Part shown: piece by piece, positions 1 to 62,644 of the stretch
Layout: each line of letters opens with the position of its first letter
How positions within the stretch are numbered: the first letter of the stretch is position 1
Assembly (NCBI GenBank): GCA_964607705.1
Contig: CAZSLI010000004.1
Span: 15,750 to 79,749 of the forward strand
DNA from: an uncultured Eubacteriales bacterium
GTDB lineage: Bacteria > Actinomycetota > Coriobacteriia > Anaerosomatales > PHET01
Direction: 5' to 3'
DNA length: 64,000 nucleotides
Notes under the pieces: generated by a model
Databases searched by the model: none
What the model was told of the DNA's origin: nothing
Seen by the model: the letters and a program-made list of their open reading frames with translations, nothing else
Made by a program: the position numbers and the translations under genes

Positions 1-1070
1 CCGTGACACGAGAAGCACGCGGCCGCGTACGTGCCTTGCGTCTGGTCGGTCGCGAGCGTGCTCTGCGTCGTGGGCCGGTACTGCGCCACAAGCCCGTCGT
101 AGGCACTCGGTCCGCGATGCGCCGCATGACAATTCAGGCAGTCGCCCTTCGTCCGCCCTGCTGCCGAGGACGCCGGCAGTGAGCCGTGCGGGTTGGAGTC
201 AGCAAGGTACGCCGCCTCACCGGGGAAGGTGCCGAGCACGGGATAGCCCGCCGAGTTGGTCTTGGGCGCAGCCACGTCGGGATAGGGCGTCGCGCTCGTC
301 CAGCCGGACGGCTTCGCATGGCAGCTGAGACACCACGCGGTGTTTCCGCCGGCAGTGGTCCGACCCTGGATCACCGGCTGGGGGTTGCGCGGGTTCTTGG
401 CCGGGTCCAAGTGGGGGCTGTGGCAGCTGGCGCACGAGGCCGTGGTGTTGGCGGCATCGCCGGTCTCCTCGATCGAGTGACCGCTCGTCAGGGCGAAGGA
501 GTCATCGGCGCCATCGAACACGTCGTACTTGGACCCGACACCCGAGTGGCACGAGAAGCAGACGCCCGAGTCGCCCGAGGGCACGGACGCGGGCCGCGCG
601 AGCGTGCCGTCGACAGCAGCCACGTGAGTCGAATGACACTGGGCGCAGGTACGCGATCCCTCGTTGGCGGTGCCGTGGGGCGAGAGCGTGTCACGGGCAA
701 CGATGGGGCCCGCAGGGTCCGACAGCGCCGACTGTCCCTGGCCGGTGACCGCGCTTACGCGGTAGTAGTAGCTCTGCCCCTCCGAGGAGAACGTGTCCTC
801 GTAGAGCTGCTGGTCGGTCGAACCGATCAGGTAGGCACGTCCGTCAGGCATGGCTGCACGCCACACGCGGTACTCGGTGCCGTCGCTATCGGCCGTGCCC
901 GGCTCCCAGCTAACGACCGCGACCGTCGCCGTCGTATCGCCGGGCCGCGCTGTCACGTTCACGGGCACGTCGGCGCCCAGACCTGCGCGCGCCTGAGCGA
1001 CCGCAAAGGCCGCCCCGCCGACCAGCAGAAGTGCCCCGAGCATCATGGCGAGGGCGAAACGGTTCTGCAC
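1..1070 (-). CDS. Secreted multiheme cytochrome c with N-terminal fibronectin type III domain (3' end truncated by window edge)
   Basis: Manual minus-strand translation from GTG at 1070 is open to the edge: signal-like MQNRFALAMMLGALLLVGGAAFAVAQARA, FN3-like segment (VVSWEP...EYRVWR...YYYRVSAV), then CAQCH (633-647), CFSCH (546-560), CASCH (420-434), CLSCH (318-332), CLNCH (126-140), CFSCH (3-17). Not in the ORF track because it has no stop in the window. Confidence 0.9.
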   Translation of the reverse strand, partial: MQNRFALAMMLGALLLVGGAAFAVAQARAGLGADVPVNVTARPGDTTATVAVVSWEPGTADSDGTEYRVWRAAMPDGRAYLIGSTDQQLYEDTFSSEGQSYYYRVSAVTGQGQSALSDPAGPIVARDTLSPHGTANEGSRTCAQCHSTHVAAVDGTLARPASVPSGDSGVCFSCHSGVGSKYDVFDGADDSFALTSGHSIEETGDAANTTASCASCHSPHLDPAKNPRNPQPVIQGRTTAGGNTAWCLSCHAKPSGWTSATPYPDVAAPKTNSAGYPVLGTFPGEAAYLADSNPHGSLPASSAAGRTKGDCLNCHAAHRGPSAYDGLVAQYRPTTQSTLATDQTQGTYAAACFSCH

Positions 1071-1319
1071 GGTGACGACTGACGGTGGCAACGACGTCGA
1101 GCGGACGGACTCTATGAGGATCCCGATAGCGCGGGAGACTTGGTTTCGCGTGTTCACGATACGCGCGTTAGTGCAGGAGGCATGCCATGGCGGCCACATG
1201 AGAAGACCCACACAATTCGTCCACACCGCAACAATCTGAGGACAGGGGTCCAACGGCCCGCCGTACCGGTGGGGTATGAACGCAATGAGTCCGCCCGACA
1301 TCCGAAAGGGGCTTTCGTC

Positions 1320-2111
1320 ATGCCGCTTCCCCAGGTGGGCGAACAGGCCCCTTCACTCTCTCTGCCGAGCCATCTCGGAGACATCGTCAGCCTTGATGAA
1401 CTGCGCGGAAAGAACATCGTGATCGCGTTCTTCCCTCTCGCATTCACTCCCGTTTGAACCAACCAGATCCCCTCGTACGAGCAGGCGCTCAGCCGCTTCG
1501 AGGGGATGAACACCCAGGTCATGGGTGTGAGCGTTGACCATGTGCCGGCGCTGATGGCGTGGGCGGAGTCCTTGGGGGGCATCAGCTTCCCGCTGCTTTC
1601 GGATTTCTGGCCGCATGGAGCTGCCGCTGAGGCGTGGGGCGTGTTCCGGCATGAGGACGGCCACTCAGAGCGAGCGTTGTTCATCCTGGATGCAGAAGGC
1701 ATCGTTCGGTACGTGGACGTCCACGACATCGCCGACCAGCCCGATAACGAGACGCTCTTCGCCGAGCTGGCCAAGCTGGAACCCGAGTCGGCCGGCCGCC
1801 TCCTCGCTGCAGAGTCGTCCCCCCAGACCGGATCCGATGCACCCGTGTCCCCCGACCGACAGGAGACCTTGTCCGACGGGGTGCTGATGTACTGCCGCTC
1901 ATGGTGTCCCGACTGTCGGCGCGCCCGCGACTGGCTCGACCGCGAGGGCATCTCCTACGTCGAGATAGATGTTGATCAGGACGCCGTGGCGCGTGAAAGG
2001 GCCGCCTCTCACAACGAAGGCCGACTCCACACACCGACCTTCGAGATCGGCGAAGAGGTGTGCGTCGATTTCCAGCCACAACGCATCAGGCAGCTCCTCG
2101 ACATGATGTGA
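1320..2111 (+). CDS. Selenocysteine-containing AhpE-type peroxiredoxin fused to a glutaredoxin domain (Sec at codon 46)
   Basis: ORFs 1140-1457 and 1506-2111 are in one frame, separated only by TGA 1455-1457, which falls at the peroxidatic Cys position (FFPLAFTPV-U-TNQ; later SDFWPHG, SERALFILD). C-terminal Grx domain with WCPDC. Confidence 0.88.
1469..1505 (+). promoter_or_regulatory. Putative bacterial SECIS element
   Basis: CCCCTCG (1469-1475) pairs with CGAGGGG (1499-1505); apical GAGC-AGGC-GCTC hairpin; stem starts 11 nt after the UGA; loop GG at +27/+28. Confidence 0.75.
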
Positions 2112-2312: not shown

Positions 2313-2894
2313 ATGAGCAAGAAGGCACGCGGGGAAGGCCGAGCAAGAGACGACGCCCATAACCCGAGCGATTTCGCTCTCCAGTCGTACGGTCGCGCGG
2401 TCAACTACCTATCGCGAAGCTACCAGTCGTATCTCGACACCGTGACTGCCCCCTACGGCGTCTCAAGCGCCCACGTCCCGCTACTCGTCTACCTTTGGGA
2501 GGGTAACTCCGGAGAGACGCAGAACGAGATCGCTCGCGCGCTCGGCGTGGACAAGGGAACGATATCCCGGAACGTACAGGCCCTACTGCGGCTCGGCCTG
2601 GTGACGCAGACCGAGTGTACGCGCGACTCCCGCGCCTGCACCGTGGACCTCACCGATGAGGGCCGTCGCCTCTCACAGCCCATCGGCAAGATGTCCGATG
2701 ACTGGGCCGCGGGCGTGACAGGCCACCTCTCGGAGGAGGACCGTGTGCGCGTGCTGGCGGACCTGCAGTCGATGATCGTCCGGTCGGACGCGCTCATCCA
2801 GGGTGCCAAGGCAGCTCACGCCGGCATGGCGGCCGCGAGCTTCGTGGACGCTTCCGTGCCCGACATCACCGCGCAGGCGGTCGAGACGGTCTAA
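2313..2894 (+). CDS. MarR family transcriptional regulator
   Basis: wHTH pattern TQNEIARALGVDKGTISRNVQALLRLGLV...D.R...V.LT.EG. Confidence 0.88.
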   Translation: MSKKARGEGRARDDAHNPSDFALQSYGRAVNYLSRSYQSYLDTVTAPYGVSSAHVPLLVYLWEGNSGETQNEIARALGVDKGTISRNVQALLRLGLVTQTECTRDSRACTVDLTDEGRRLSQPIGKMSDDWAAGVTGHLSEEDRVRVLADLQSMIVRSDALIQGAKAAHAGMAAASFVDASVPDITAQAVETV

Positions 2895-53266: not shown

Positions 53267-54646
53267 CTAGACCTTCCCGGCAGCGTCGAGGGCCGCGAAC
53301 TTGATGACCTCGCTGACGGTCGGGTGGCCGTGAACTGTGTGTGCGAGCTGCTTGACCGTGACTCCGTTGGCCATGCAGACGGCCACCTCATGGATGATCT
53401 CCACCGCGTGCGGCCCGACGATCTGGCAGCCGACGATGCGCCCGCTGCCCTTCTCGGCGACGATCTGCACGAACCCGTCGCTTTCGCCCTCGCCGAGGGC
53501 CTTCCCGTTCGCCGAGAACTTCGACACCGCCTGGATGGCGTCGATGCCGCGCTCCTTGGCGCCGTCCTTCGTGCGACCGACGACTGCGACCTCGGGGAAC
53601 GTGTAGACGCACGCCGGGATGCAGTCGAGGCACACGGTGTCGCTCGGCTGCTCACCCTTGAGCGCCGCGACGGCGTTGCGTGCGGCCGCGATACCCTCGT
53701 CCTCGGCCACGTGCGCGAGCATCATGCCGCCGATGAGGTCGCCGATGGCGTAGACGCCCGCAAGGTTCGTACGGAAGTACTCGTCGACCTTGAGTGCGCG
53801 GCGATCGAACTCGATGCCGGCCGCCTCGTAGCCGAAGCCCGCGGAGTTGGGCACCCGACCCACGGCGCTCATGACGATCTCGCTCTCGAGAACGGCTCCA
53901 CTTGCGAGCGTGGAGCGCATGCGCTCACCCACCCGCTCGACCGTCTGGACCGAGTCGCCGATGTGGAACTCGACCCCAAGCTCCTCGAGATGCTGCTGTG
54001 TCAGGCGGACCACGCGCTTGTCGTTGCCGGGAAGCACCTGCGGGGCGAGCTCGACGACCGTGACTTTGCTGCCGAACGCGGCGTAGGCGCAGGCGAACTC
54101 GAGGCCGATGACCCCGCCGCCGATGATGAGGATGTCCTTCGGGATGTCCTTGAGCGAAACGGCATCGTCGCTGGTCCAGACGCCGGCCATGTCGTGATCG
54201 ATGTTCGGGAGCCTGAAGACGATCGAGCCGGTTGCGAGGATGACCGCATCCGCCTCGACCGTGCGTGTGCCGCCGTCCGCGAGTGCCACCTCGACAGTCT
54301 TCTCGCCCGCGAGCTTGCCCTCGCCATAGACGACCTCGACCTTGAGGCGCTTGGCACTCGACTCCACCTGGCCCACGAGCTCGTCGACCACGCCCTCCTT
54401 GCGGGCGCGCAGACGAGCGACGTCCACCGTGGCGACCTCGACGTCGAGACCGAACTCCTCGGCGTTACGCGTGTCGGCGACGATGTGAGCCGAGCGCAGG
54501 ATGGTCTTGGTGGGGATGCAGCCCCAGTTCAGGCAGGTGCCTCCGAGCCGCTCGCGTTCGACCAGCACGACCTCGGCGCCAAGCCGGGCCGCTTCGAATG
54601 CCGCCGAGTAACCACCGGGACCGCCGCCGAGAACCGCGATACGCAT
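53267..54646 (-). CDS. lpdA: Dihydrolipoyl dehydrogenase
   Basis: GGGPGGY, GGTCLNWGCIPTK, GGGVIGLE, HGHPTVSE. Confidence 0.93.
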   Translation of the reverse strand: MRIAVLGGGPGGYSAAFEAARLGAEVVLVERERLGGTCLNWGCIPTKTILRSAHIVADTRNAEEFGLDVEVATVDVARLRARKEGVVDELVGQVESSAKRLKVEVVYGEGKLAGEKTVEVALADGGTRTVEADAVILATGSIVFRLPNIDHDMAGVWTSDDAVSLKDIPKDILIIGGGVIGLEFACAYAAFGSKVTVVELAPQVLPGNDKRVVRLTQQHLEELGVEFHIGDSVQTVERVGERMRSTLASGAVLESEIVMSAVGRVPNSAGFGYEAAGIEFDRRALKVDEYFRTNLAGVYAIGDLIGGMMLAHVAEDEGIAAARNAVAALKGEQPSDTVCLDCIPACVYTFPEVAVVGRTKDGAKERGIDAIQAVSKFSANGKALGEGESDGFVQIVAEKGSGRIVGCQIVGPHAVEIIHEVAVCMANGVTVKQLAHTVHGHPTVSEVIKFAALDAAGKV

Positions 54647-54785
54647 AAGGAGACCCTCCGAACTCACCCTATGGGCAGATAGTCCGGAGATTCTAGCATG
54701 CCGAGGAATCACATCGGGTGCTGAGCGGAACCTTCCCGGCGCGTCATCGCGGGCGATCGTCTCCGCCGAACCGCCCCTAGCCCGG

Positions 54786-55658
54786 CTAGGCGAGATCGGC
54801 GCCCTCGAGGATCACGCGCACCGCGTCATCGGAGCCAAGCGGCATGATGTGGACCCCATCGGCCATCGCCTTGAGTTCGCGCACCTGCTCGGTGGCGAGC
54901 GCGATCGACTCGGCGAGCGGGTCGGCGGCTCCCTTGATGCGGGACTCGATCGCTTCCGGCACCATGAGACCCGCAAGCTTGCTGTTGATGAAGTCGATCA
55001 CCCGTCCGCTCTTGAACAGCAGGACGCCGGCGATGAGCTTCACGCCGTAGGGCTCCAGCGCCTCTGCCGCGCGCGCGAACTTGGCCACGTCGGTCACGGC
55101 CTGAGTCTGGAAGAACCGCGCGCCGGCCTCTATCTTCTGCACCGTGCGCTCCAGCTGGATGTCGAAGGGCTCCGCTTCAGGGAACGCTGCGGCGCCGAGA
55201 AGGAAGTCGGTCGCCCCGGTGAGCGCAGAGCCGTTCATGTCCGCCCCGTCGTTCAGGCCCCGCGCGACGCCCAAGAGCTGCGTCGAGTCGAGGTCGAACA
55301 CGCCCTTGGCCTCCGGGTGATCGCCGCCGCGGGGATCGTCGCCCGTCACGATCAGCACGTTCTCGAGGCCCAGCGTCCACGCGGCGAGCAGATCGCTTTG
55401 CAGCGCAAGGCGGTTCCGGTCCCGGCAGGTCTGCTGGAATATGGGCTCGAATCCGGCGTCCAGCACCGCGCGAGACGCAGCGAGCGAACTCAGGTGCAGA
55501 GTCGCTCCCTGATTGTCAGTGACGTTGAGCGCGTGACAGTAGGGTCCCAGCCGCTCGACGCTCGCGAGCATCGCCGAGTAGTCGGTCCCGTGGGGCGGCG
55601 CTACCTCGCCGGTGACGACGAACTCACCGCGCTCGAGCGCATCGCGCAGACGGCTCAT
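54786..55658 (-). CDS. metF: Methylenetetrahydrofolate reductase MetF subunit
   Basis: VTGEVAPP, NVTDNQ, CRDRNRLALQSDL, TGD, KIEAGARFFQTQ. Confidence 0.93.
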   Translation of the reverse strand: MSRLRDALERGEFVVTGEVAPPHGTDYSAMLASVERLGPYCHALNVTDNQGATLHLSSLAASRAVLDAGFEPIFQQTCRDRNRLALQSDLLAAWTLGLENVLIVTGDDPRGGDHPEAKGVFDLDSTQLLGVARGLNDGADMNGSALTGATDFLLGAAAFPEAEPFDIQLERTVQKIEAGARFFQTQAVTDVAKFARAAEALEPYGVKLIAGVLLFKSGRVIDFINSKLAGLMVPEAIESRIKGAADPLAESIALATEQVRELKAMADGVHIMPLGSDDAVRVILEGADLA

Positions 55659-57596: not shown

Positions 57597-60032
57597 CTAG
57601 GAGATGGCTCCCCGCACCGCCTCTACGCAGCCAAGGGCGTCCGCCGAGTACCCCGCCCCGACCTGCTCGGCCCACTCGCGCGTCACCACCGCCCCGCCGA
57701 CGAACAGCGCCACGTCCGGCTGAGCGGCGCGCACCGCGTCAAGCGTGTCGCGCATGGCGGGCAGCGTCGTCGTCATGAGTGCCGAGAGGCAGACGGCCCG
57801 CACGTCGGCGGCAGCCTCGACCACCCGCTCGACGGGAACGTCCACCCCGAGGTCGACGACCTCGATGCCCTGGCTCTCGAGCATCGAGACGCAGATGTCC
57901 TTCCCGATCGAGTGGATGTCTCCCTTGACCGTCGCGAACGCCACGGACGGGCCTGCCGAGAGACCCTCCCCTTCGGGAAGCAGTTCCTTCACGCGAGCGA
58001 CAGCGGCCTTCATGGCCTCGGCCGCGACCATCATCTGCGGCAGGAAGACCTCGCCGCGCCCGTACGCATCGCCGAGCCGCTGGATAGCGGGCGTCAGCAC
58101 ATCGCCGATGACCGACTCGGGCGCCGTGCCACTCTCGACGACCGCATCGACCAGCGTCGGTGCGCTGTCGGCGTCGCCGCGAAGCATCGCGGTCACGAGC
58201 GCTTCTCGGGGATCCGCAGCCTCGGCTGTCGCACCCTCGGCCACTTGTGCCTCGACCCCTCCAGCGGCCTGCTCCATCGCCGACGCGTACGCCGCCTCCC
58301 ACGCGTCCCACGCCTGCACGTGGGCGTCGGGGTCGACCCCGGCCTCACGCGCCTGATTCACGAGCCGGACGGCCTCCATGACCACGTGATCGTTGGGGTT
58401 CACGATCGCCGAGGACAACCCGTAGGCGGCCGCCACCGACAGGAACGCTGCGTTGAGCAGCGGACGGCTCGGCAGCCCGTGGCTGACATTGGAGACGCCG
58501 AGGGTGGTGGCGAGACCCACGGAACTCGCCGCGCTCATCGCCCCGAGCGTCACGCCGGGCGCGTCCTCGTCGGTGGCCGCGGTCATGACGAGCGCGTCCA
58601 CCACAAGATCGCGTGCCGGAATGCCGTGCTGCTCGGCGGCCGACTGCACGCGATCGACGATCGCCGCGCGCCCCTCGGGCCTGCCGGGGATGCCGTCGTC
58701 ATCGAGCGCAAGCACGACCAGTGCGGCGCCGTAGCGCGCCGCGAGCGGCAGCACCGACTCCATCGATGCAACTTCGCCGTTGACGCTGTTGATGAGCGCC
58801 TTGCCGGGATAGACCCGCAGCGCCGCTTCGAGCGCAGCCGGGTCGGTTGTGTCGAGCACGAGGGGCAGGTCGGTAGAGCCGACCAGCGCGAGCACGGCCT
58901 GCGGAAGGACCGCCGGGGCGTCCACTCCGGCAGCACCGACGTTCACGTCAAGCAGGTCCGCTCCCGCATCCTCCTGCTCGGCGGCATACGAGCGCACCAC
59001 GCTCATCGAGCCGGCGAGCAGCGACTCCTTCAGCTTGGGCTTGCCCGTCGGGTTGATGCGCTCGCCGATCACCCGCAACGGCTGTCCCGGGCCGATCTCA
59101 ACGACTCGCCGAGGACCTGCGAGCACCGTGCCTTCGTGGCCCCGGGAGCCGATGTCCACCACGTCGCGGTCAGCGACGGCATCCACGATCGCTCCCGTGT
59201 GGGCCGGCGACGATCCGCAGCAGGATCCCACTGCGGCCACACCTGCGACACGCACCTGTTCTGCGAAGGCACCCATCTCGTCGGCGGTGCCAGGGAAGAC
59301 CGTGTTCCCGGCGTCATCGAGGGTAGGCAGACCTGCGTTCGGCTGCGCGATGACGGGTAGCCTGGTAGCCCTCACCATGCGGGCGGCGAGCGGCAACATC
59401 TGGTCGGGCCCAAGCCCGCAGTTGAGGCCGACGGCGTCGGCGCCCGCCGCCTCAAGTATCACGGCCGCCGCCTCAGGCGACGTCCCGGACAGGTCCATGA
59501 CGCCTGCGAGCCCGAAGGTACAGCTCGCAAATACCGGCAGGTCACATACGCTCTTGGCGGCGAGCACGGCGCAGCGGGCTTCAGCGATGTCGGTCATCGT
59601 CTCGATGAAGATCGCGTCCGGCTTCTCGGCGGCCAGTGCCGCGGCCTGCTCGGCGAAGGCGGCGAAGACTTCCTCGAACGTGGCAGGTCCGAGCGGTTGC
59701 ATGACGAGCCCCGTCGGGCCCATGTCCGCGAGCACGTGAGGGGGCCCGTAGCGCTTGGCGATCTTCACCGCGGCGCGGTTGAACTCATCGACCCGGTCCG
59801 CGTAGCCATACTCGGCGAGCTTGGGCGCCGACCCGCCGAACGTGTTCGTAATGGTGCAGTCGCTCCCAGCGAGCTGGTAGAGCCGAAGCACCTGTCCCAC
59901 CATGTCGGGCGCGGTGATGTTGAGCAGCTCAGGGCACTCGCCCGCCGGAAGGCCGGCGCGCTGGAGCATCGTTCCCATAGCGCCGTCCAGCACGAGCATC
60001 TCGCGGCCGAGCCGCATCATGATATCGGGCAT
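57597..60032 (-). CDS. metH: Cobalamin-dependent methionine synthase (Hcy-binding, pterin-binding, B12-binding domains; no reactivation domain)
   Basis: LDGAMGTML, GLNC, GSCCG, IGERINPTGK, GDIHSIGKDI, SALMTTT. Confidence 0.92.
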   Translation of the reverse strand: MPDIMMRLGREMLVLDGAMGTMLQRAGLPAGECPELLNITAPDMVGQVLRLYQLAGSDCTITNTFGGSAPKLAEYGYADRVDEFNRAAVKIAKRYGPPHVLADMGPTGLVMQPLGPATFEEVFAAFAEQAAALAAEKPDAIFIETMTDIAEARCAVLAAKSVCDLPVFASCTFGLAGVMDLSGTSPEAAAVILEAAGADAVGLNCGLGPDQMLPLAARMVRATRLPVIAQPNAGLPTLDDAGNTVFPGTADEMGAFAEQVRVAGVAAVGSCCGSSPAHTGAIVDAVADRDVVDIGSRGHEGTVLAGPRRVVEIGPGQPLRVIGERINPTGKPKLKESLLAGSMSVVRSYAAEQEDAGADLLDVNVGAAGVDAPAVLPQAVLALVGSTDLPLVLDTTDPAALEAALRVYPGKALINSVNGEVASMESVLPLAARYGAALVVLALDDDGIPGRPEGRAAIVDRVQSAAEQHGIPARDLVVDALVMTAATDEDAPGVTLGAMSAASSVGLATTLGVSNVSHGLPSRPLLNAAFLSVAAAYGLSSAIVNPNDHVVMEAVRLVNQAREAGVDPDAHVQAWDAWEAAYASAMEQAAGGVEAQVAEGATAEAADPREALVTAMLRGDADSAPTLVDAVVESGTAPESVIGDVLTPAIQRLGDAYGRGEVFLPQMMVAAEAMKAAVARVKELLPEGEGLSAGPSVAFATVKGDIHSIGKDICVSMLESQGIEVVDLGVDVPVERVVEAAADVRAVCLSALMTTTLPAMRDTLDAVRAAQPDVALFVGGAVVTREWAEQVGAGYSADALGCVEAVRGAIS

Positions 60033-60039
60033 GCCGTCC

Positions 60040-60375
60040 CTACTCCTCGACCTTGCTGTTCGCGTATGCCACAGCCATGAACCACAGCGAGCCGACGCAC
60101 ATCAACGCCAGCACGATCATCTCCGTCAGCGGACCGGGACCGTACGCCCTGAGAAACCCGGCCAGCTGCCCTGAGGCCGCCGCCCAGGCGAGGTCGAGTG
60201 CGGCCAGGCCCAGAAACGAGTACGCCACGACCGAGTTGTAGCGCATGGCTGCGGCTTTACCCCTCCTGGCGCCGACTACGTACACAAGTCCGAATCCCAC
60301 GCTGGCCGCCATCGTGATCACGAACCCGACGGGCACGAACGTGAAGACCCACATCTGGTTGTATCCGAAATACAC
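60040..60375 (-). CDS. Small membrane protein (about 3 TM)
   Basis: Hydrophobic 111-aa ORF tightly packed within the operon. Confidence 0.65.
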   Translation of the reverse strand: MYFGYNQMWVFTFVPVGFVITMAASVGFGLVYVVGARRGKAAAMRYNSVVAYSFLGLAALDLAWAAASGQLAGFLRAYGPGPLTEMIVLALMCVGSLWFMAVAYANSKVEE

Positions 60376-60390
60376 GCGAGGCTCCGTACG

Positions 60391-60792
60391 TTAGAACGAA
60401 AGACTGACGGCCCGCCGAGGACACGCGATGACGCACGCCTCGCAGTAGACGCACTTGTCCTTGTCGAACACGAGCGCTTCCCCACTCAGGGTCAGCGCTC
60501 CCGACCGGCAGACAGCCGTGCACAGACCACACGTCACGCAGCGATCCTCATCGAGCTTGATGTCGCTGGCGGCCTCGCGGACCTGAAGACCCTGTGATGC
60601 CAGGAACGCCATGGCGTCCGAGAGTGCGTCCTTGCGGCCGGTGACCTCCACAAGCATGCGGCCCTCCTGACCCGGCTGAATCTGTGCGCGAAGGATATTC
60701 GGCACGATGTCGTAGTCCTTCACCAGGTGATAGACCACGGGCTTCAGCGACTGCCGAGGCGGGAACGTGAGATCGAGGCGCTTCTTCGCCAT
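60391..60792 (-). CDS. NIL domain + 2x[4Fe-4S] ferredoxin (MA1822-like)
   Basis: KPVVYHLVKDY...NILRAQI, CVTCGLCTAVC, CVYCEACVIACP. Confidence 0.92.
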   Translation of the reverse strand: MAKKRLDLTFPPRQSLKPVVYHLVKDYDIVPNILRAQIQPGQEGRMLVEVTGRKDALSDAMAFLASQGLQVREAASDIKLDEDRCVTCGLCTAVCRSGALTLSGEALVFDKDKCVYCEACVIACPRRAVSLSF

Positions 60793-61962
60793 CTAGATCG
60801 CCTCCCCGGCGCGGACCTCGAGGGGCTTGGTGCTCTGGGACCCCGGCGGTGGCAGCAGCTCGACCGGCCGCGCGATCGTCCACCCACCGCGTATCCAGGA
60901 CTTGAGCTCCTCGGCGATAGCGCGCGCCTTCTTCAAGGAGCTGATCGGTCCGGTGGGCACCTTGCGGCCCTCGATCTCTATCTCGCCGCTGCGCAGCTGG
61001 GCGTAGGTGACCCGCCCCATGCTCGGGCGGCTTCGACGCTGAACGCCATAGTCGAACACGGTCGCCGAGATCTGCTCGTCGCTCAAAGCCAGCGTGAGCG
61101 CGATGTCCTCATCGAGTACCGGGATGGGGACGCCGATGCCCATGAAGCACGACACCCCGTACTTGGTCATCGTGGCCGCCGAGTAGTACGCCGGCGATGC
61201 CTGCTTCAGATCCGCGATGACTGCGAGGGTGCCCGAAGGGCCCACCGGTACGCCGTGCTCATCGCGCGTCTGATTGGGATTGTGCTGGGTGCCCTGCCAT
61301 GACACGTAGCCGGGCGCACCGGCGACGAAGCACCGGGTGCCGATGCCGATCGTCCGGTACTCCGGGTCATTGAGCAGCGGCGAAAGCGCGCCCGCCGAGC
61401 AGTAGGTCGCGTTGCCGAGCCTCGGCAACAGCGGGCCAAGGTAGGTGTAGAGGGTCTGGTCGGTCGAGTTCACCGCGACCGCGTAGTTCTGATACGCGTT
61501 GCGAGGGTTGAAGAAATACGCCTGATTGAGGTCATCAAGTGTGACCCAGGTATCTATCTCGGTGCGCGGATAGCAATCAGTGCCCGGCCCCGTGGCCTTG
61601 AGCCGTACGGCGTGGCCCCTGAGCAGGTCCTCGATAACATGGGCACCGCCGTACTCGATACCCCGCGTGAGCGAAGGCTCGGTGGCCCCCAAGTAGGTAT
61701 CGACGGCGGCGAGCCCGCCACTGGCGGGAACGTCGTTGAGGGTGATCGCACCCATCTTGATGGGAGGATCCGAATGTCCGAAGTTCAGAAAGGCGCCGCT
61801 CGAGCACATCGGCCCGAACGTTCCAGTGGTGACCACATCGACCTTGCGGGCGGCCTTCTTGAGACCCTCGTCGGAGGCCAGCGCACCGAACTCCTCGGCG
61901 GTCATCACGACCGCTTCACCGGAAGCGATGCGCTCGTTGATCTCGTCCCAGCTCTTGGCCAT
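60793..61962 (-). CDS. Homocysteine biosynthesis protein / aspartate semialdehyde sulfurtransferase (DUF39, MA1821-like, no CBS domains)
   Basis: EINERI..G.AVV.TAEE, VDVVTTGTFGPMCSSGA, NPRNAYQNY, TLYTYLG, LLNDP.YRTIGIGTR, WQGTQH. Confidence 0.92.
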   Translation of the reverse strand: MAKSWDEINERIASGEAVVMTAEEFGALASDEGLKKAARKVDVVTTGTFGPMCSSGAFLNFGHSDPPIKMGAITLNDVPASGGLAAVDTYLGATEPSLTRGIEYGGAHVIEDLLRGHAVRLKATGPGTDCYPRTEIDTWVTLDDLNQAYFFNPRNAYQNYAVAVNSTDQTLYTYLGPLLPRLGNATYCSAGALSPLLNDPEYRTIGIGTRCFVAGAPGYVSWQGTQHNPNQTRDEHGVPVGPSGTLAVIADLKQASPAYYSAATMTKYGVSCFMGIGVPIPVLDEDIALTLALSDEQISATVFDYGVQRRSRPSMGRVTYAQLRSGEIEIEGRKVPTGPISSLKKARAIAEELKSWIRGGWTIARPVELLPPPGSQSTKPLEVRAGEAI

Positions 61963-62056
61963 GACAGCCGCCCCCTCATGCGACGAAGGGCGCCCGCCTC
62001 GGCCTCGTCACCGAGTGGCGCGCCCTCGAAATGCCGGAATACGCACCGGCGGGCGA

Positions 62057-62086
62057 ATGATACCGACTGACTTGCAGCCGGGTCAA
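62057..62086 (-). promoter_or_regulatory. Sigma70-type promoter for the DUF39 operon
   Basis: TTGACC, 18-nt spacer, TATCAT immediately after the Rrf2 stop. Confidence 0.6.
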
Positions 62087-62089
62087 AAC

Positions 62090-62530
62090 TCAGCGTGAGG
62101 CCCCATTCAGCGCCTCGGGGACGCCGCCCTCGGCCACGCAGTCGGCAAGCGTCATGGTTGCGAGCTCGCGCTCGATCATGGCGTCTATGCGCTTCCACAC
62201 GCCGTTGTGAACGGGGCAGTCATCCGTGCGCCGACACGCGTGTTCGTCGTAGGTGCACAGCGACATCGTGGGCTTCTCGTCCATCGCGACGAAGACGTCG
62301 AGCAATGAGATCTCATCGGCCGCCCTGGCGAGCGCGAAGCCTCCCTGGGAGCCACGCCGAGAGACCAGGAGACCGGAGCGAGCGAGCTTGTTGGCGATCT
62401 GGCGGGCGAAATCGTAGGGAACGTCAGCAGACTCGGAGAGGACGGCGATACTGCAGCGGGCGTCGGGCCCGAGCCTGGTCAGCTCGTAGGCGATGCGTAT
62501 CGCATAGTCCGTACGCCAGGCGATCGGCAT
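62090..62530 (-). CDS. Rrf2 family transcriptional regulator with three Cys
   Basis: TDYAIR, L..SGLL.S.RG..GGF.LAR, ISLLDV; C-x6-C-x5-C (LCTYDEHACRRTDDCPVH). Confidence 0.9.
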   Translation of the reverse strand: MPIAWRTDYAIRIAYELTRLGPDARCSIAVLSESADVPYDFARQIANKLARSGLLVSRRGSQGGFALARAADEISLLDVFVAMDEKPTMSLCTYDEHACRRTDDCPVHNGVWKRIDAMIERELATMTLADCVAEGGVPEALNGASR

Positions 62531-62644
62531 GGTCTGGCCCCTTCTTCTGCCCGTCGGCGAACCACGGTGCCTTTTGCGAGAAAGACAATGCTACGAAGCA
62601 GTGCCTTTTCGTACCCTATTTCGTTGTAAGAAACTGCCGACGAG

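Follow-up and report, generated by a model that had tools for sequence, protein, structure and literature searches.

A probable selenocysteine-containing AhpE-type peroxiredoxin with a fused CPDC redoxin domain in an uncultured Coriobacteriia bacterium

The stretch of DNA considered here (64,000 nucleotides of contig CAZSLI010000004.1, assembly GCA_964607705.1, positions 15,750 to 79,749 of the forward strand; "the window" below) comes from an uncultured sludge bacterium of an anaerobic Coriobacteriia lineage and has a G+C content of 66.7%. The GatB protein encoded in it shares 86% identity with proteins of metagenome-assembled genomes labelled "Coriobacteriia bacterium". Close to its beginning is an open reading frame (ORF; 1320-2111, plus strand) whose translation comprises 263 sense codons and a single internal stop, a TGA in the context FFPLAFTPV*TNQ; there is no other disruption of the frame, and the gene ends with another TGA (2109-2111). 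The predicted translation agrees with the 263-residue product proposed in an earlier note on this DNA, made from the sequence alone. The ORF encodes a peroxiredoxin (Prx) domain followed by a linker and a small redoxin domain (Table 1), and the internal TGA (1455-1457) does sit, as the earlier note had claimed, at the peroxidatic position, replacing the cysteine of the universal PxxxTxxC motif. The proteins of relatives start with MPLPxVGE, as does the window protein, and this backs the choice of ATG 1320. This Prx-redoxin ORF is very probably a real gene, encoding a peroxide-destroying enzyme that would use selenocysteine (Sec) and carry its own recycling domain. A promoter and terminator scan of 1000-2400 yielded nothing useful.

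The internal TGA recurs wherever the same locus or close relatives of it were found. Two other sludge-metagenome assemblies contain the locus, one identical to the window over 10.9 kb (L092, 100%) and the other 99.55% identical over 3.8 kb (L093), and both have TGA at the position of 1455-1457. In the DNA of seven distinct close relatives on Coriobacteriia-like contigs, reached by way of their truncated proteins, TGA occupies the same codon in all seven; their 45 upstream codons are conserved and have been called as a separate mini-ORF with a weak AhpC-TSA match, and they share with the window the gene order prx, MarR, NAD_binding_2 dehydrogenase, GNAT, FMN reductase, AA_kinase, isochorismatase. 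Among the matches listed from GTDB species genomes, which did not include the window's own lineage, the best 15 fused loci comprise 14 with TGA and one with TGT; these are from Chloroflexota (Anaerolineae), except for one metagenome-assembled genome (MAG) labelled Acidobacteria, and include a TGA form in the cultured Ornatilinea apprima P3M-1. When GTDB genomes and JGI metagenomes were sampled at the DNA level, 62 of 64 distinct fused loci had TGA. There are also true Cys forms (L008, L113, P0016 and P0026), of which the last two were verified to translate as stored.

A change of TGC or TGT to TGA requires only one base, and MAG assemblies do contain errors, so that a pseudogene, or a misreading during sequencing or assembly, might be imagined here. 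However, the codon is identical in three assemblies, one of them representing a strain that has diverged by 0.45%, and it recurs in over 60 orthologues, which stem from a range of samples and phyla; the window frame is otherwise intact. The error explanation is effectively refuted by these observations, and we assign it a negligible probability.

Protein databases present the family in altered form. In a search of 5.8 billion proteins, the best matches (58-70% identity) were exclusively N-truncated sequences of about 190-218 residues whose first residue lies immediately beyond the TGA position; among farther matches (45-53% identity) there were full-length proteins, of about 247 residues. Tryptophan is recorded at the Sec position in 22 of 79 full-length database members (among P0013-P0070), and these 22 records are the point in favor of another explanation, in which TGA has been reassigned to Trp or Gly (genetic codes 4 or 25) and residue 46 is not Sec at all. 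The sole W record checked against its DNA was P0056 (L094:225-974): its codon is TGA, translation with table 11 does not give the stored protein, and its W is an artefact of a gene caller that translated a short contig with TGA as Trp. There is no general reassignment of TGA, because this gene and many other window ORFs end with it; moreover, an enzyme with Trp or Gly as its peroxidatic residue would be inactive. Reassignment is therefore to be regarded as extremely improbable. Of the database relatives examined, 89 in all, 33 are recorded either with W or in N-truncated form, a systematic annotation artefact.

A second line of evidence is a hairpin at 1467-1507 resembling a selenocysteine insertion sequence (SECIS). 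It begins 9 nt past the UGA, within the coding sequence. Above a lower stem of 9 bp (AUCCCCUCG/CGAGGGGAU) it has an upper stem and the apical loop GCUCA (1487-1491), which lies 32 nt from the U of the UGA. Its minimum free energy is -26 kcal/mol, with z-scores of -4.6 to -4.9 (-4.86 with dinucleotide shuffles); after the terminal TGA, there is no such structure (z = +1.0). The position of the hairpin and the G-first apical loops are in keeping with the bacterial SECIS criteria for loop distance and for a G in the loop. Because the hairpin sits in coding sequence, a control by synonymous recoding was used, in which each sequence was compared with 100-200 synonymous versions drawn from the gene's own codon usage. 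None of 200 recodings of the window hairpin folds as well as the natural sequence. In a first data set the median rank among recodings was 0.015 for TGA forms (n = 27) and 0.445 for Cys forms (n = 59; Mann-Whitney p = 2e-9), the latter being mostly Prx-only deltaproteobacterial homologues; for fused loci alone, the corresponding medians were 0.01 (n = 62) and 0.45 (n = 2). Excess stability over synonymous recodings was thus seen in TGA forms only.

The stems also covary. An ungapped alignment of 63 distinct TGA forms gives a consensus of 12 pairs, with 81% of cells paired and two-sided changes in 8 of the 12 (for example AUCCCG/CGGGAU, AUUCCG/CGGAAU, AUGCCC/GGGCAU and AUACCC/GGGUAU). The covariation score is 0.301, compared with 0.177 for column shuffles, none of 500 of which reached the observed value, while slid registers gave no more than 0.122; the 63 sequences are related, so that the shuffle counts should not be taken as probabilities. 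On this comparative evidence, the hairpin is predicted to act as a bacterial-type SECIS that directs decoding of the UGA. Over 60 loci have conserved coding on both sides of the TGA, and together with the covarying hairpin downstream this strongly supports the reading of the codon as Sec.

Might TGA 1455 nonetheless be an ordinary stop? Translation would then produce a 45-residue peptide, perhaps plus an N-truncated protein initiated at ATG 1506 or 1521, and the databases do store just such pieces, fragments of 196-218 residues and a 45-residue mini-ORF. The truncated product, however, would be without the first strands of the Prx fold and without any of the PxxxTxxC active site. Across two phyla, the 45 upstream codons show conservation at the protein level and always stop right at the peroxidatic position, the covarying hairpin is confined to TGA forms, and Cys forms are single uninterrupted ORFs. 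An ordinary stop is very unlikely in the light of these features.

The N-terminal half of the protein belongs, by sequence, with the AhpE-type peroxiredoxins. In Pfam searches, run with C in place of U, AhpC-TSA (PF00578) matched residues 6-132 over the whole model (1.4e-34; 119.2 bits, cut-off 26). Among PDB sequences AhpE, Rv2238c, matched best (3.6e-28); the top seven were all AhpE, the next being of Prx1 type (1e-20). The window protein and AhpE both carry FFPLAFT..C and LLSDFWPHGA motifs, and R118 of the former aligns with the Arg of the AhpE NRGTF segment. Within the family (alignment A4), none of the 79 rows spanning the region departs from P39 or T43, and R118 is kept in 89 of 90. A structure model was made for P0016, a Cys homologue 52% identical to the window protein, from an alignment of 89 sequences: the AlphaFold2 (AF2) prediction has a mean predicted local distance difference test (pLDDT) of 93.6 and a predicted template-modelling score (pTM) of 0.84, is confident in both domains, and loses confidence only in the linker and around the active-site loop. 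Its top twelve Foldseek matches were AhpE structures, the best with a template-modelling (TM) score of 0.93 and a root-mean-square deviation (rmsd) of 1.5 A. An AhpE-like Prx, as the earlier note had it, is what both the homologue alignments and the fold of the P0016 model indicate. The window protein did not reach the cut-offs of two other peroxiredoxin models, PrxU (NF040737; 54.8 bits against 270) and Prx-SUH (NF045827; 36.6 bits against 298).

The only cysteines of the window protein are C192, C196, C199 and C248, with none in residues 1-186. Its Prx domain is accordingly without a resolving Cys, in the manner of the 1-Cys AhpE subfamily. The statement in the earlier note that no resolving Cys is apparent in this domain stands for the window protein; it does not extend to the family, in which 63 of 90 relatives (A4) have a Cys at position 77 (VPCLKAW, where the third helix begins). 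The window protein has Ala instead (1548-1550). In members that have it, Cys77 could serve as an internal resolving residue; it is not essential to the family, because position 77 varies (S, V, A, T).

The C-terminal domain matches Glutaredoxin (PF00462) over residues 188-246 (2e-13; 50.8 bits against a cut-off of 22.9). Its best NCBIfam model is the YruB family (TIGR02196), matched over the full model length at 3e-17 and below the cut-off (62.9 bits against 88.55), followed by mycoredoxin (TIGR02200; 3.5e-14, 53 bits against 89.5), the Uxx-star glutaredoxin (Grx)-like model (9.5e-11), Grx3 (4.8e-8) and NrdH (TIGR02194; 3.7e-7, 30.3 bits against 85.75); no NCBIfam model reaches its curated cut-off for this domain. 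Its best relatives in the PDB are 3ZIT (a Bacillus cereus Grx-like thioredoxin), 7C10, NrdH structures such as 1R7H, and the mycoredoxin Mrx1, 2LQO (1.9e-5). NrdH-redoxins are marked by CVQC and a C-terminal SGFRP (PMC8945050); the window protein has CPDC and VDFQPQ instead, and the VDFRPD of close relatives merely resembles SGFRP. On these comparisons, the domain is classed as a small NrdH/YruB/mycoredoxin-like redoxin and not as a classical glutathione (GSH)-type glutaredoxin: the C-terminal CPDC motif and the Pfam Glutaredoxin match are as the earlier note had described them, and only the glutaredoxin type has to be revised. C196 is present in 90 of 90 members (A4), and C199 and C192 in 88 of 90 each, whether the member is a Sec or a Cys form.

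A monothiol variant, S...CPDS, occurs in P0094 and one other row of A4, both of them Cys forms, in which Cys192 and Cys199 have been lost together. Large variation in length is confined to the linker (alignment A1). P0064 and P0111 have linker inserts some 100 residues long, with many Ala, Glu and Pro (A1 columns ~190-280), which suggests that the two domains may tolerate, or exploit, a very long tether.

The explanation that we favor, with good though not complete confidence, is that the locus encodes one 263-residue selenoprotein, in which Sec46, inserted under direction of the SECIS, serves an AhpE-type Prx joined by a flexible linker to a CPDC redoxin that recycles it. In such an enzyme the Sec46 selenolate would attack H2O2, an organic hydroperoxide or peroxynitrite, becoming a selenenic acid; Cys196 of the fused domain, in the same or a partner subunit, would attack this in turn to form a selenenylsulfide, which Cys199 would resolve, leaving a Cys196-Cys199 disulfide and a free selenol. 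An external system would then re-reduce the disulfide. By analogy with NrdH-like redoxins, which take electrons from thioredoxin reductase (PMC8945050), the donor may be a flavoenzyme of thioredoxin-reductase type; alternatively it may be a low-molecular-weight thiol, comparable to the mycothiol/mycoredoxin-1 route for AhpE. Mycoredoxin-1 reduces the sulfenic acid of AhpE, either straight away or once it has been S-mycothiolated (Hugo et al. 2014, summarised in PMC4360819), and the fusion would hard-wire a peroxidase-reductant pair whose members, AhpE and Mrx1, are separate proteins in Mycobacterium tuberculosis. The description of the enzyme as a self-contained peroxidase, used in the earlier note, is too strong, because the CPDC disulfide must be re-reduced from outside.

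Several observations weigh against this explanation. Neither selA, selB or selD, nor a tRNA-Sec or a second selenoprotein gene, was found within the 64-kb window, an absence that also counts for the ordinary-stop alternative. ARAGORN detected no tRNA of any kind in the window, tRNA-Sec included, and annotation of about 46 window ORFs with Pfam and NCBIfam gave no sel genes and no thioredoxin reductase; the sole class-I flavoprotein disulfide reductase in the window, a pyridine-nucleotide disulfide oxidoreductase (53267-54811), is a dihydrolipoyl dehydrogenase. A scan of the window for further in-frame TGA candidates, by G+C content at third codon positions (GC3) on both sides, found only antisense-looking frames; it was low-powered, and missed the Prx gene itself because the N-terminal part of the gene is short. 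As to the hairpin, Rfam gave no SECIS match and no other meaningful one, either over the whole window at gathering thresholds or over 1430-1540 at permissive ones. The lower stem shifts register by one nucleotide between clades, coding constraint (QIPSY...FEG) explains part of the conservation of the hairpin, though not all of it by the synonymous control, and the Cys control within the fused family is very small (2 loci). The structural model covers a Cys homologue at 52% identity and not the window protein, and the electron transfer from Sec46 to CPDC is proposed solely on grounds of architecture and analogy. Use of Sec in the phyla Actinobacteria and Chloroflexi is documented (PMC1794560).

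The recycling step is where a further alternative arises: the protein could be a genuine selenoprotein in which the redoxin is not the recycler of Sec46. The Prx might be a peroxide sensor that relays oxidation through CPDC, for example to the MarR-family protein encoded downstream; in a second form of this idea, the redoxin would serve another substrate and Sec46 would be recycled by a free thiol or a free redoxin. A MarR gene is conserved beside the Prx gene in the closest relatives and its product has two Cys, Cys77 offers 63 of 90 members a possible internal resolving residue, two members have the monothiol variant SCPDS, and Prx-only Sec forms exist that have no fused domain (L016, L021, L031, L036, L072). 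On the other hand, the window Prx domain is devoid of Cys, 88-90 of 90 members retain C196 and C199 in Sec and Cys forms alike, a homologous redoxin is known to reduce AhpE directly (PMC4360819), and MarR is absent from the Anaerolineae loci and from several Coriobacteriia-like ones. On balance, a redoxin with some other role seems unlikely, and recycling of Sec46 by the fused CPDC domain is the function we prefer for it.

How does the proposed enzyme relate to known systems? It resembles M. tuberculosis AhpE in sequence, in fold (as modelled for P0016), in having no resolving Cys in the Prx and in having a small Grx-like redoxin as partner. It differs from the AhpE/Mrx1 couple in that Sec replaces Cys and the redoxin is fused instead of separate; relative to Mrx1, the fused domain combines CPDC with a further conserved cysteine, Cys192, and scores below the mycoredoxin cut-off, and the host belongs to an anaerobic Coriobacteriia lineage. 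A second relative is PrxU, a selenocysteine peroxiredoxin of Eubacterium acidaminophilum described by Sohling et al. in 2001, since when Sec-containing peroxiredoxins have been known. PrxU and the wider "Prx (TxxU)" group share with the window protein a Sec in place of the peroxidatic Cys, in the TxxU of a PF00578 peroxiredoxin, and Sec/Cys interconversion; the window protein is of the AhpE-like subfamily, has a C-terminal redoxin, and falls far below the PrxU equivalog cut-off. Sec-containing Prx are treated as an established selenoprotein family in PMC13188914 and PMC1794560, the former including a review table that lists Prx (TxxU) with Sec for the peroxidatic Cys, and the latter describing Sec/Cys interconversion within the Prx family.

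A third comparison is with PGdx of Haemophilus influenzae (1NM3), which has the same N-terminal Prx, C-terminal Grx order and the same logic of a peroxidase fused to its reductant. In PGdx a Prx5-type Prx is joined to a GSH-dependent classical glutaredoxin; here an AhpE-type Prx is joined to an NrdH/YruB-like CPDC redoxin and Sec is used, so that the window protein lacks the defining features of the PGdx class. The two structures are also distant, 1NM3 aligning over both domains but ranking 20th in the Foldseek search with the P0016 model (257 columns, TM 0.47-0.49, rmsd 12 A, 24% identity). PGdx and the Prx-redoxin family look like independent fusion events. The window protein shares its architecture with the Cys fusions of Anaerolineae, stored as "redoxin domain-containing protein" or "peroxiredoxin/glutaredoxin": these are of the same family and 45-53% identical over 97% of the length, yet have TGT or TGC, no stabilised hairpin and intact annotation, whereas Sec forms are split, truncated or given W. 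The PrxU/TxxU family and PGdx do provide the precedents that the earlier note had claimed for Sec-Prx and Prx-Grx hybrids, respectively.

A literature search for Sec-Prx/Grx fusions, Prx-Grx hybrids, AhpE-mycoredoxin, AhpE with selenocysteine, and Anaerolineae and Coriobacteriia selenoproteins, incomplete in its coverage, turned up no Sec AhpE-type Prx and no Sec Prx-Grx fusion, and the selenoprotein tables and fusion sections of the surveys consulted do not list a Sec Prx-redoxin fusion. What appears to be new is the combination: in Anaerolineae and Coriobacteriia, a Sec-Prx of the AhpE subfamily with a fused NrdH/YruB-like CPDC redoxin, mostly in Sec form. Its precedents, namely Sec-peroxiredoxins, Prx-Grx hybrids and the AhpE-Mrx1 couple, are all well known, and the combination overturns nothing in current understanding, being coherent rather than surprising. 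The family has escaped curation because gene callers split the genes and no NCBIfam model reaches its cut-off.

A broader proposal, which we offer tentatively and regard as possible but rather doubtful, is that the fusion is a widespread selenoprotein family among anaerobes of the Anaerolineae and Coriobacteriia, with Sec forms at least as frequent as Cys forms, in which C-x3-CPDC, with its extra Cys192, is a dedicated selenium-to-sulfur relay coupling the Prx directly to a flavoprotein reductase. If this is true, the relay would free an AhpE-type peroxidase from low-molecular-weight thiols, and the family would be a natural "Rosetta-stone" for the AhpE-mycoredoxin partnership, with a ready set of natural Sec/Cys pairs. 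The fusion itself provides genomic evidence that small NrdH/mycoredoxin-like redoxins recycle AhpE-type 1-Cys Prx well beyond mycobacteria. Is selenium selected for resistance to over-oxidation, or for faster thiol resolution? Natural Sec and Cys versions of one enzyme could be used to test this. There is also a hint that strict anaerobes living in sludge and sediments depend on selenium for their defence against peroxide. On the practical side, dozens to hundreds of Anaerolineae and Coriobacteriia MAG genes, and the Ornatilinea apprima gene, are stored as fragments or with Trp; a dedicated family model would mend their annotation and flag these lineages as Sec users.

Table 1. Features of the predicted Prx-redoxin gene and its downstream neighbour (window coordinates)
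Feature	Position	Strand	Basis
Predicted complete selenoprotein gene	1320..2111	+	translation; two Pfam domains; orthologues with same architecture and start
Shine-Dalgarno-like AAGGGG	1306..1311	+	read off sequence, 8 nt before ATG 1320
AhpE-type peroxiredoxin domain, residues 6-132	1335..1715	+	PF00578
Active-site motif P39-L-A-F-T43-P-V-U46 (PxxxTxxU)	1434..1457	+	translation; AhpE alignment
In-frame TGA, read as Sec46	1455..1457	+	aligns with Cys (TGT/TGC) of homologues
SECIS-like hairpin	1467..1507	+	folding; synonymous recoding; covariation
Putative catalytic Arg118 codon	1671-1673	+	
Low-complexity linker, ~residues 150-187	1767..1880	+	gaps and insertions in alignment A1
Glutaredoxin-like redoxin domain (NrdH/YruB/mycoredoxin-type), residues 188-263	1881..2108	+	PF00462
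Cys192 and redox motif Cys196-Pro-Asp-Cys199 (YCRSWCPDC)	1893..1916	+	family alignment A4
MarR-family regulator gene, downstream neighbour	2313..2894	+	PF12802, 6.6e-11

The MarR-family gene has the same position in L084, L085 and L092, and is missing from the Anaerolineae loci and several Coriobacteriia-like loci. Its product has two closely spaced Cys (ECTRDSRAC) and weak similarity to OhrR and BilQ (OhrR 9e-7, far below the cut-off); from these features, it could be a redox-sensing regulator of the Prx-redoxin locus.

Upstream, as the earlier note had observed, a multiheme c-type cytochrome gene is divergently oriented on the minus strand (window 3-1199, with its start at 1199 or 1046). The part within the window contains six CXXCH motifs; the full gene is at L092:421-2514 and encodes 697 residues. 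The cytochrome has an fn3-like domain, an N-terminal hydrophobic segment, and weak similarity to MtrC/MtrF and to DmsE-decaheme proteins. In a Gram-positive Coriobacteriia MAG, it is a possible component of extracellular electron transfer. The genes upstream of the Prx gene in relatives encode NYN-domain or rhodanese proteins and not a cytochrome; a functional link to the cytochrome was rejected, since the adjacency is limited to the window's own lineage and therefore implies none.

A rhodanese gene lies immediately upstream of the Prx gene in four contigs (L086:5031-5747, L088:4850-5779, L090:711-1790, L176:2033-2887), which span two phyla and both Sec and Cys forms. This link was also set aside: the four rhodaneses are mutually dissimilar at 1e-8 in tblastn searches, and there was no match in the other loci.

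Stand-alone AhpE-like Prx genes that have TGA but no fused redoxin were seen at L036:3124 (Sulfobacillus harzensis DSM 109850), L031:3124, L016:111, L021:3148, L072:404 and L041:6184. Their hosts are Bacillota, Acidobacteria, a MAG labelled Sphingomonadaceae and an Anaerolineales MAG. The one in L041 is a second, TGA-containing Prx (FPAAFTPL*TGE) located 3 kb from a Cys-Prx.

Elsewhere in the window, a cluster on the minus strand (57597-62590) comprises a MetH-like methionine synthase (S-methyl_trans, Pterin_bind and B12-binding domains), a small unassigned ORF, an Rrf2 regulator, an NIL/4Fe-4S ferredoxin-domain protein and a COG1900-type homocysteine biosynthesis enzyme (HcyBio, 8e-147). In its predicted gene content, this cluster resembles an archaeal-type homocysteine pathway.

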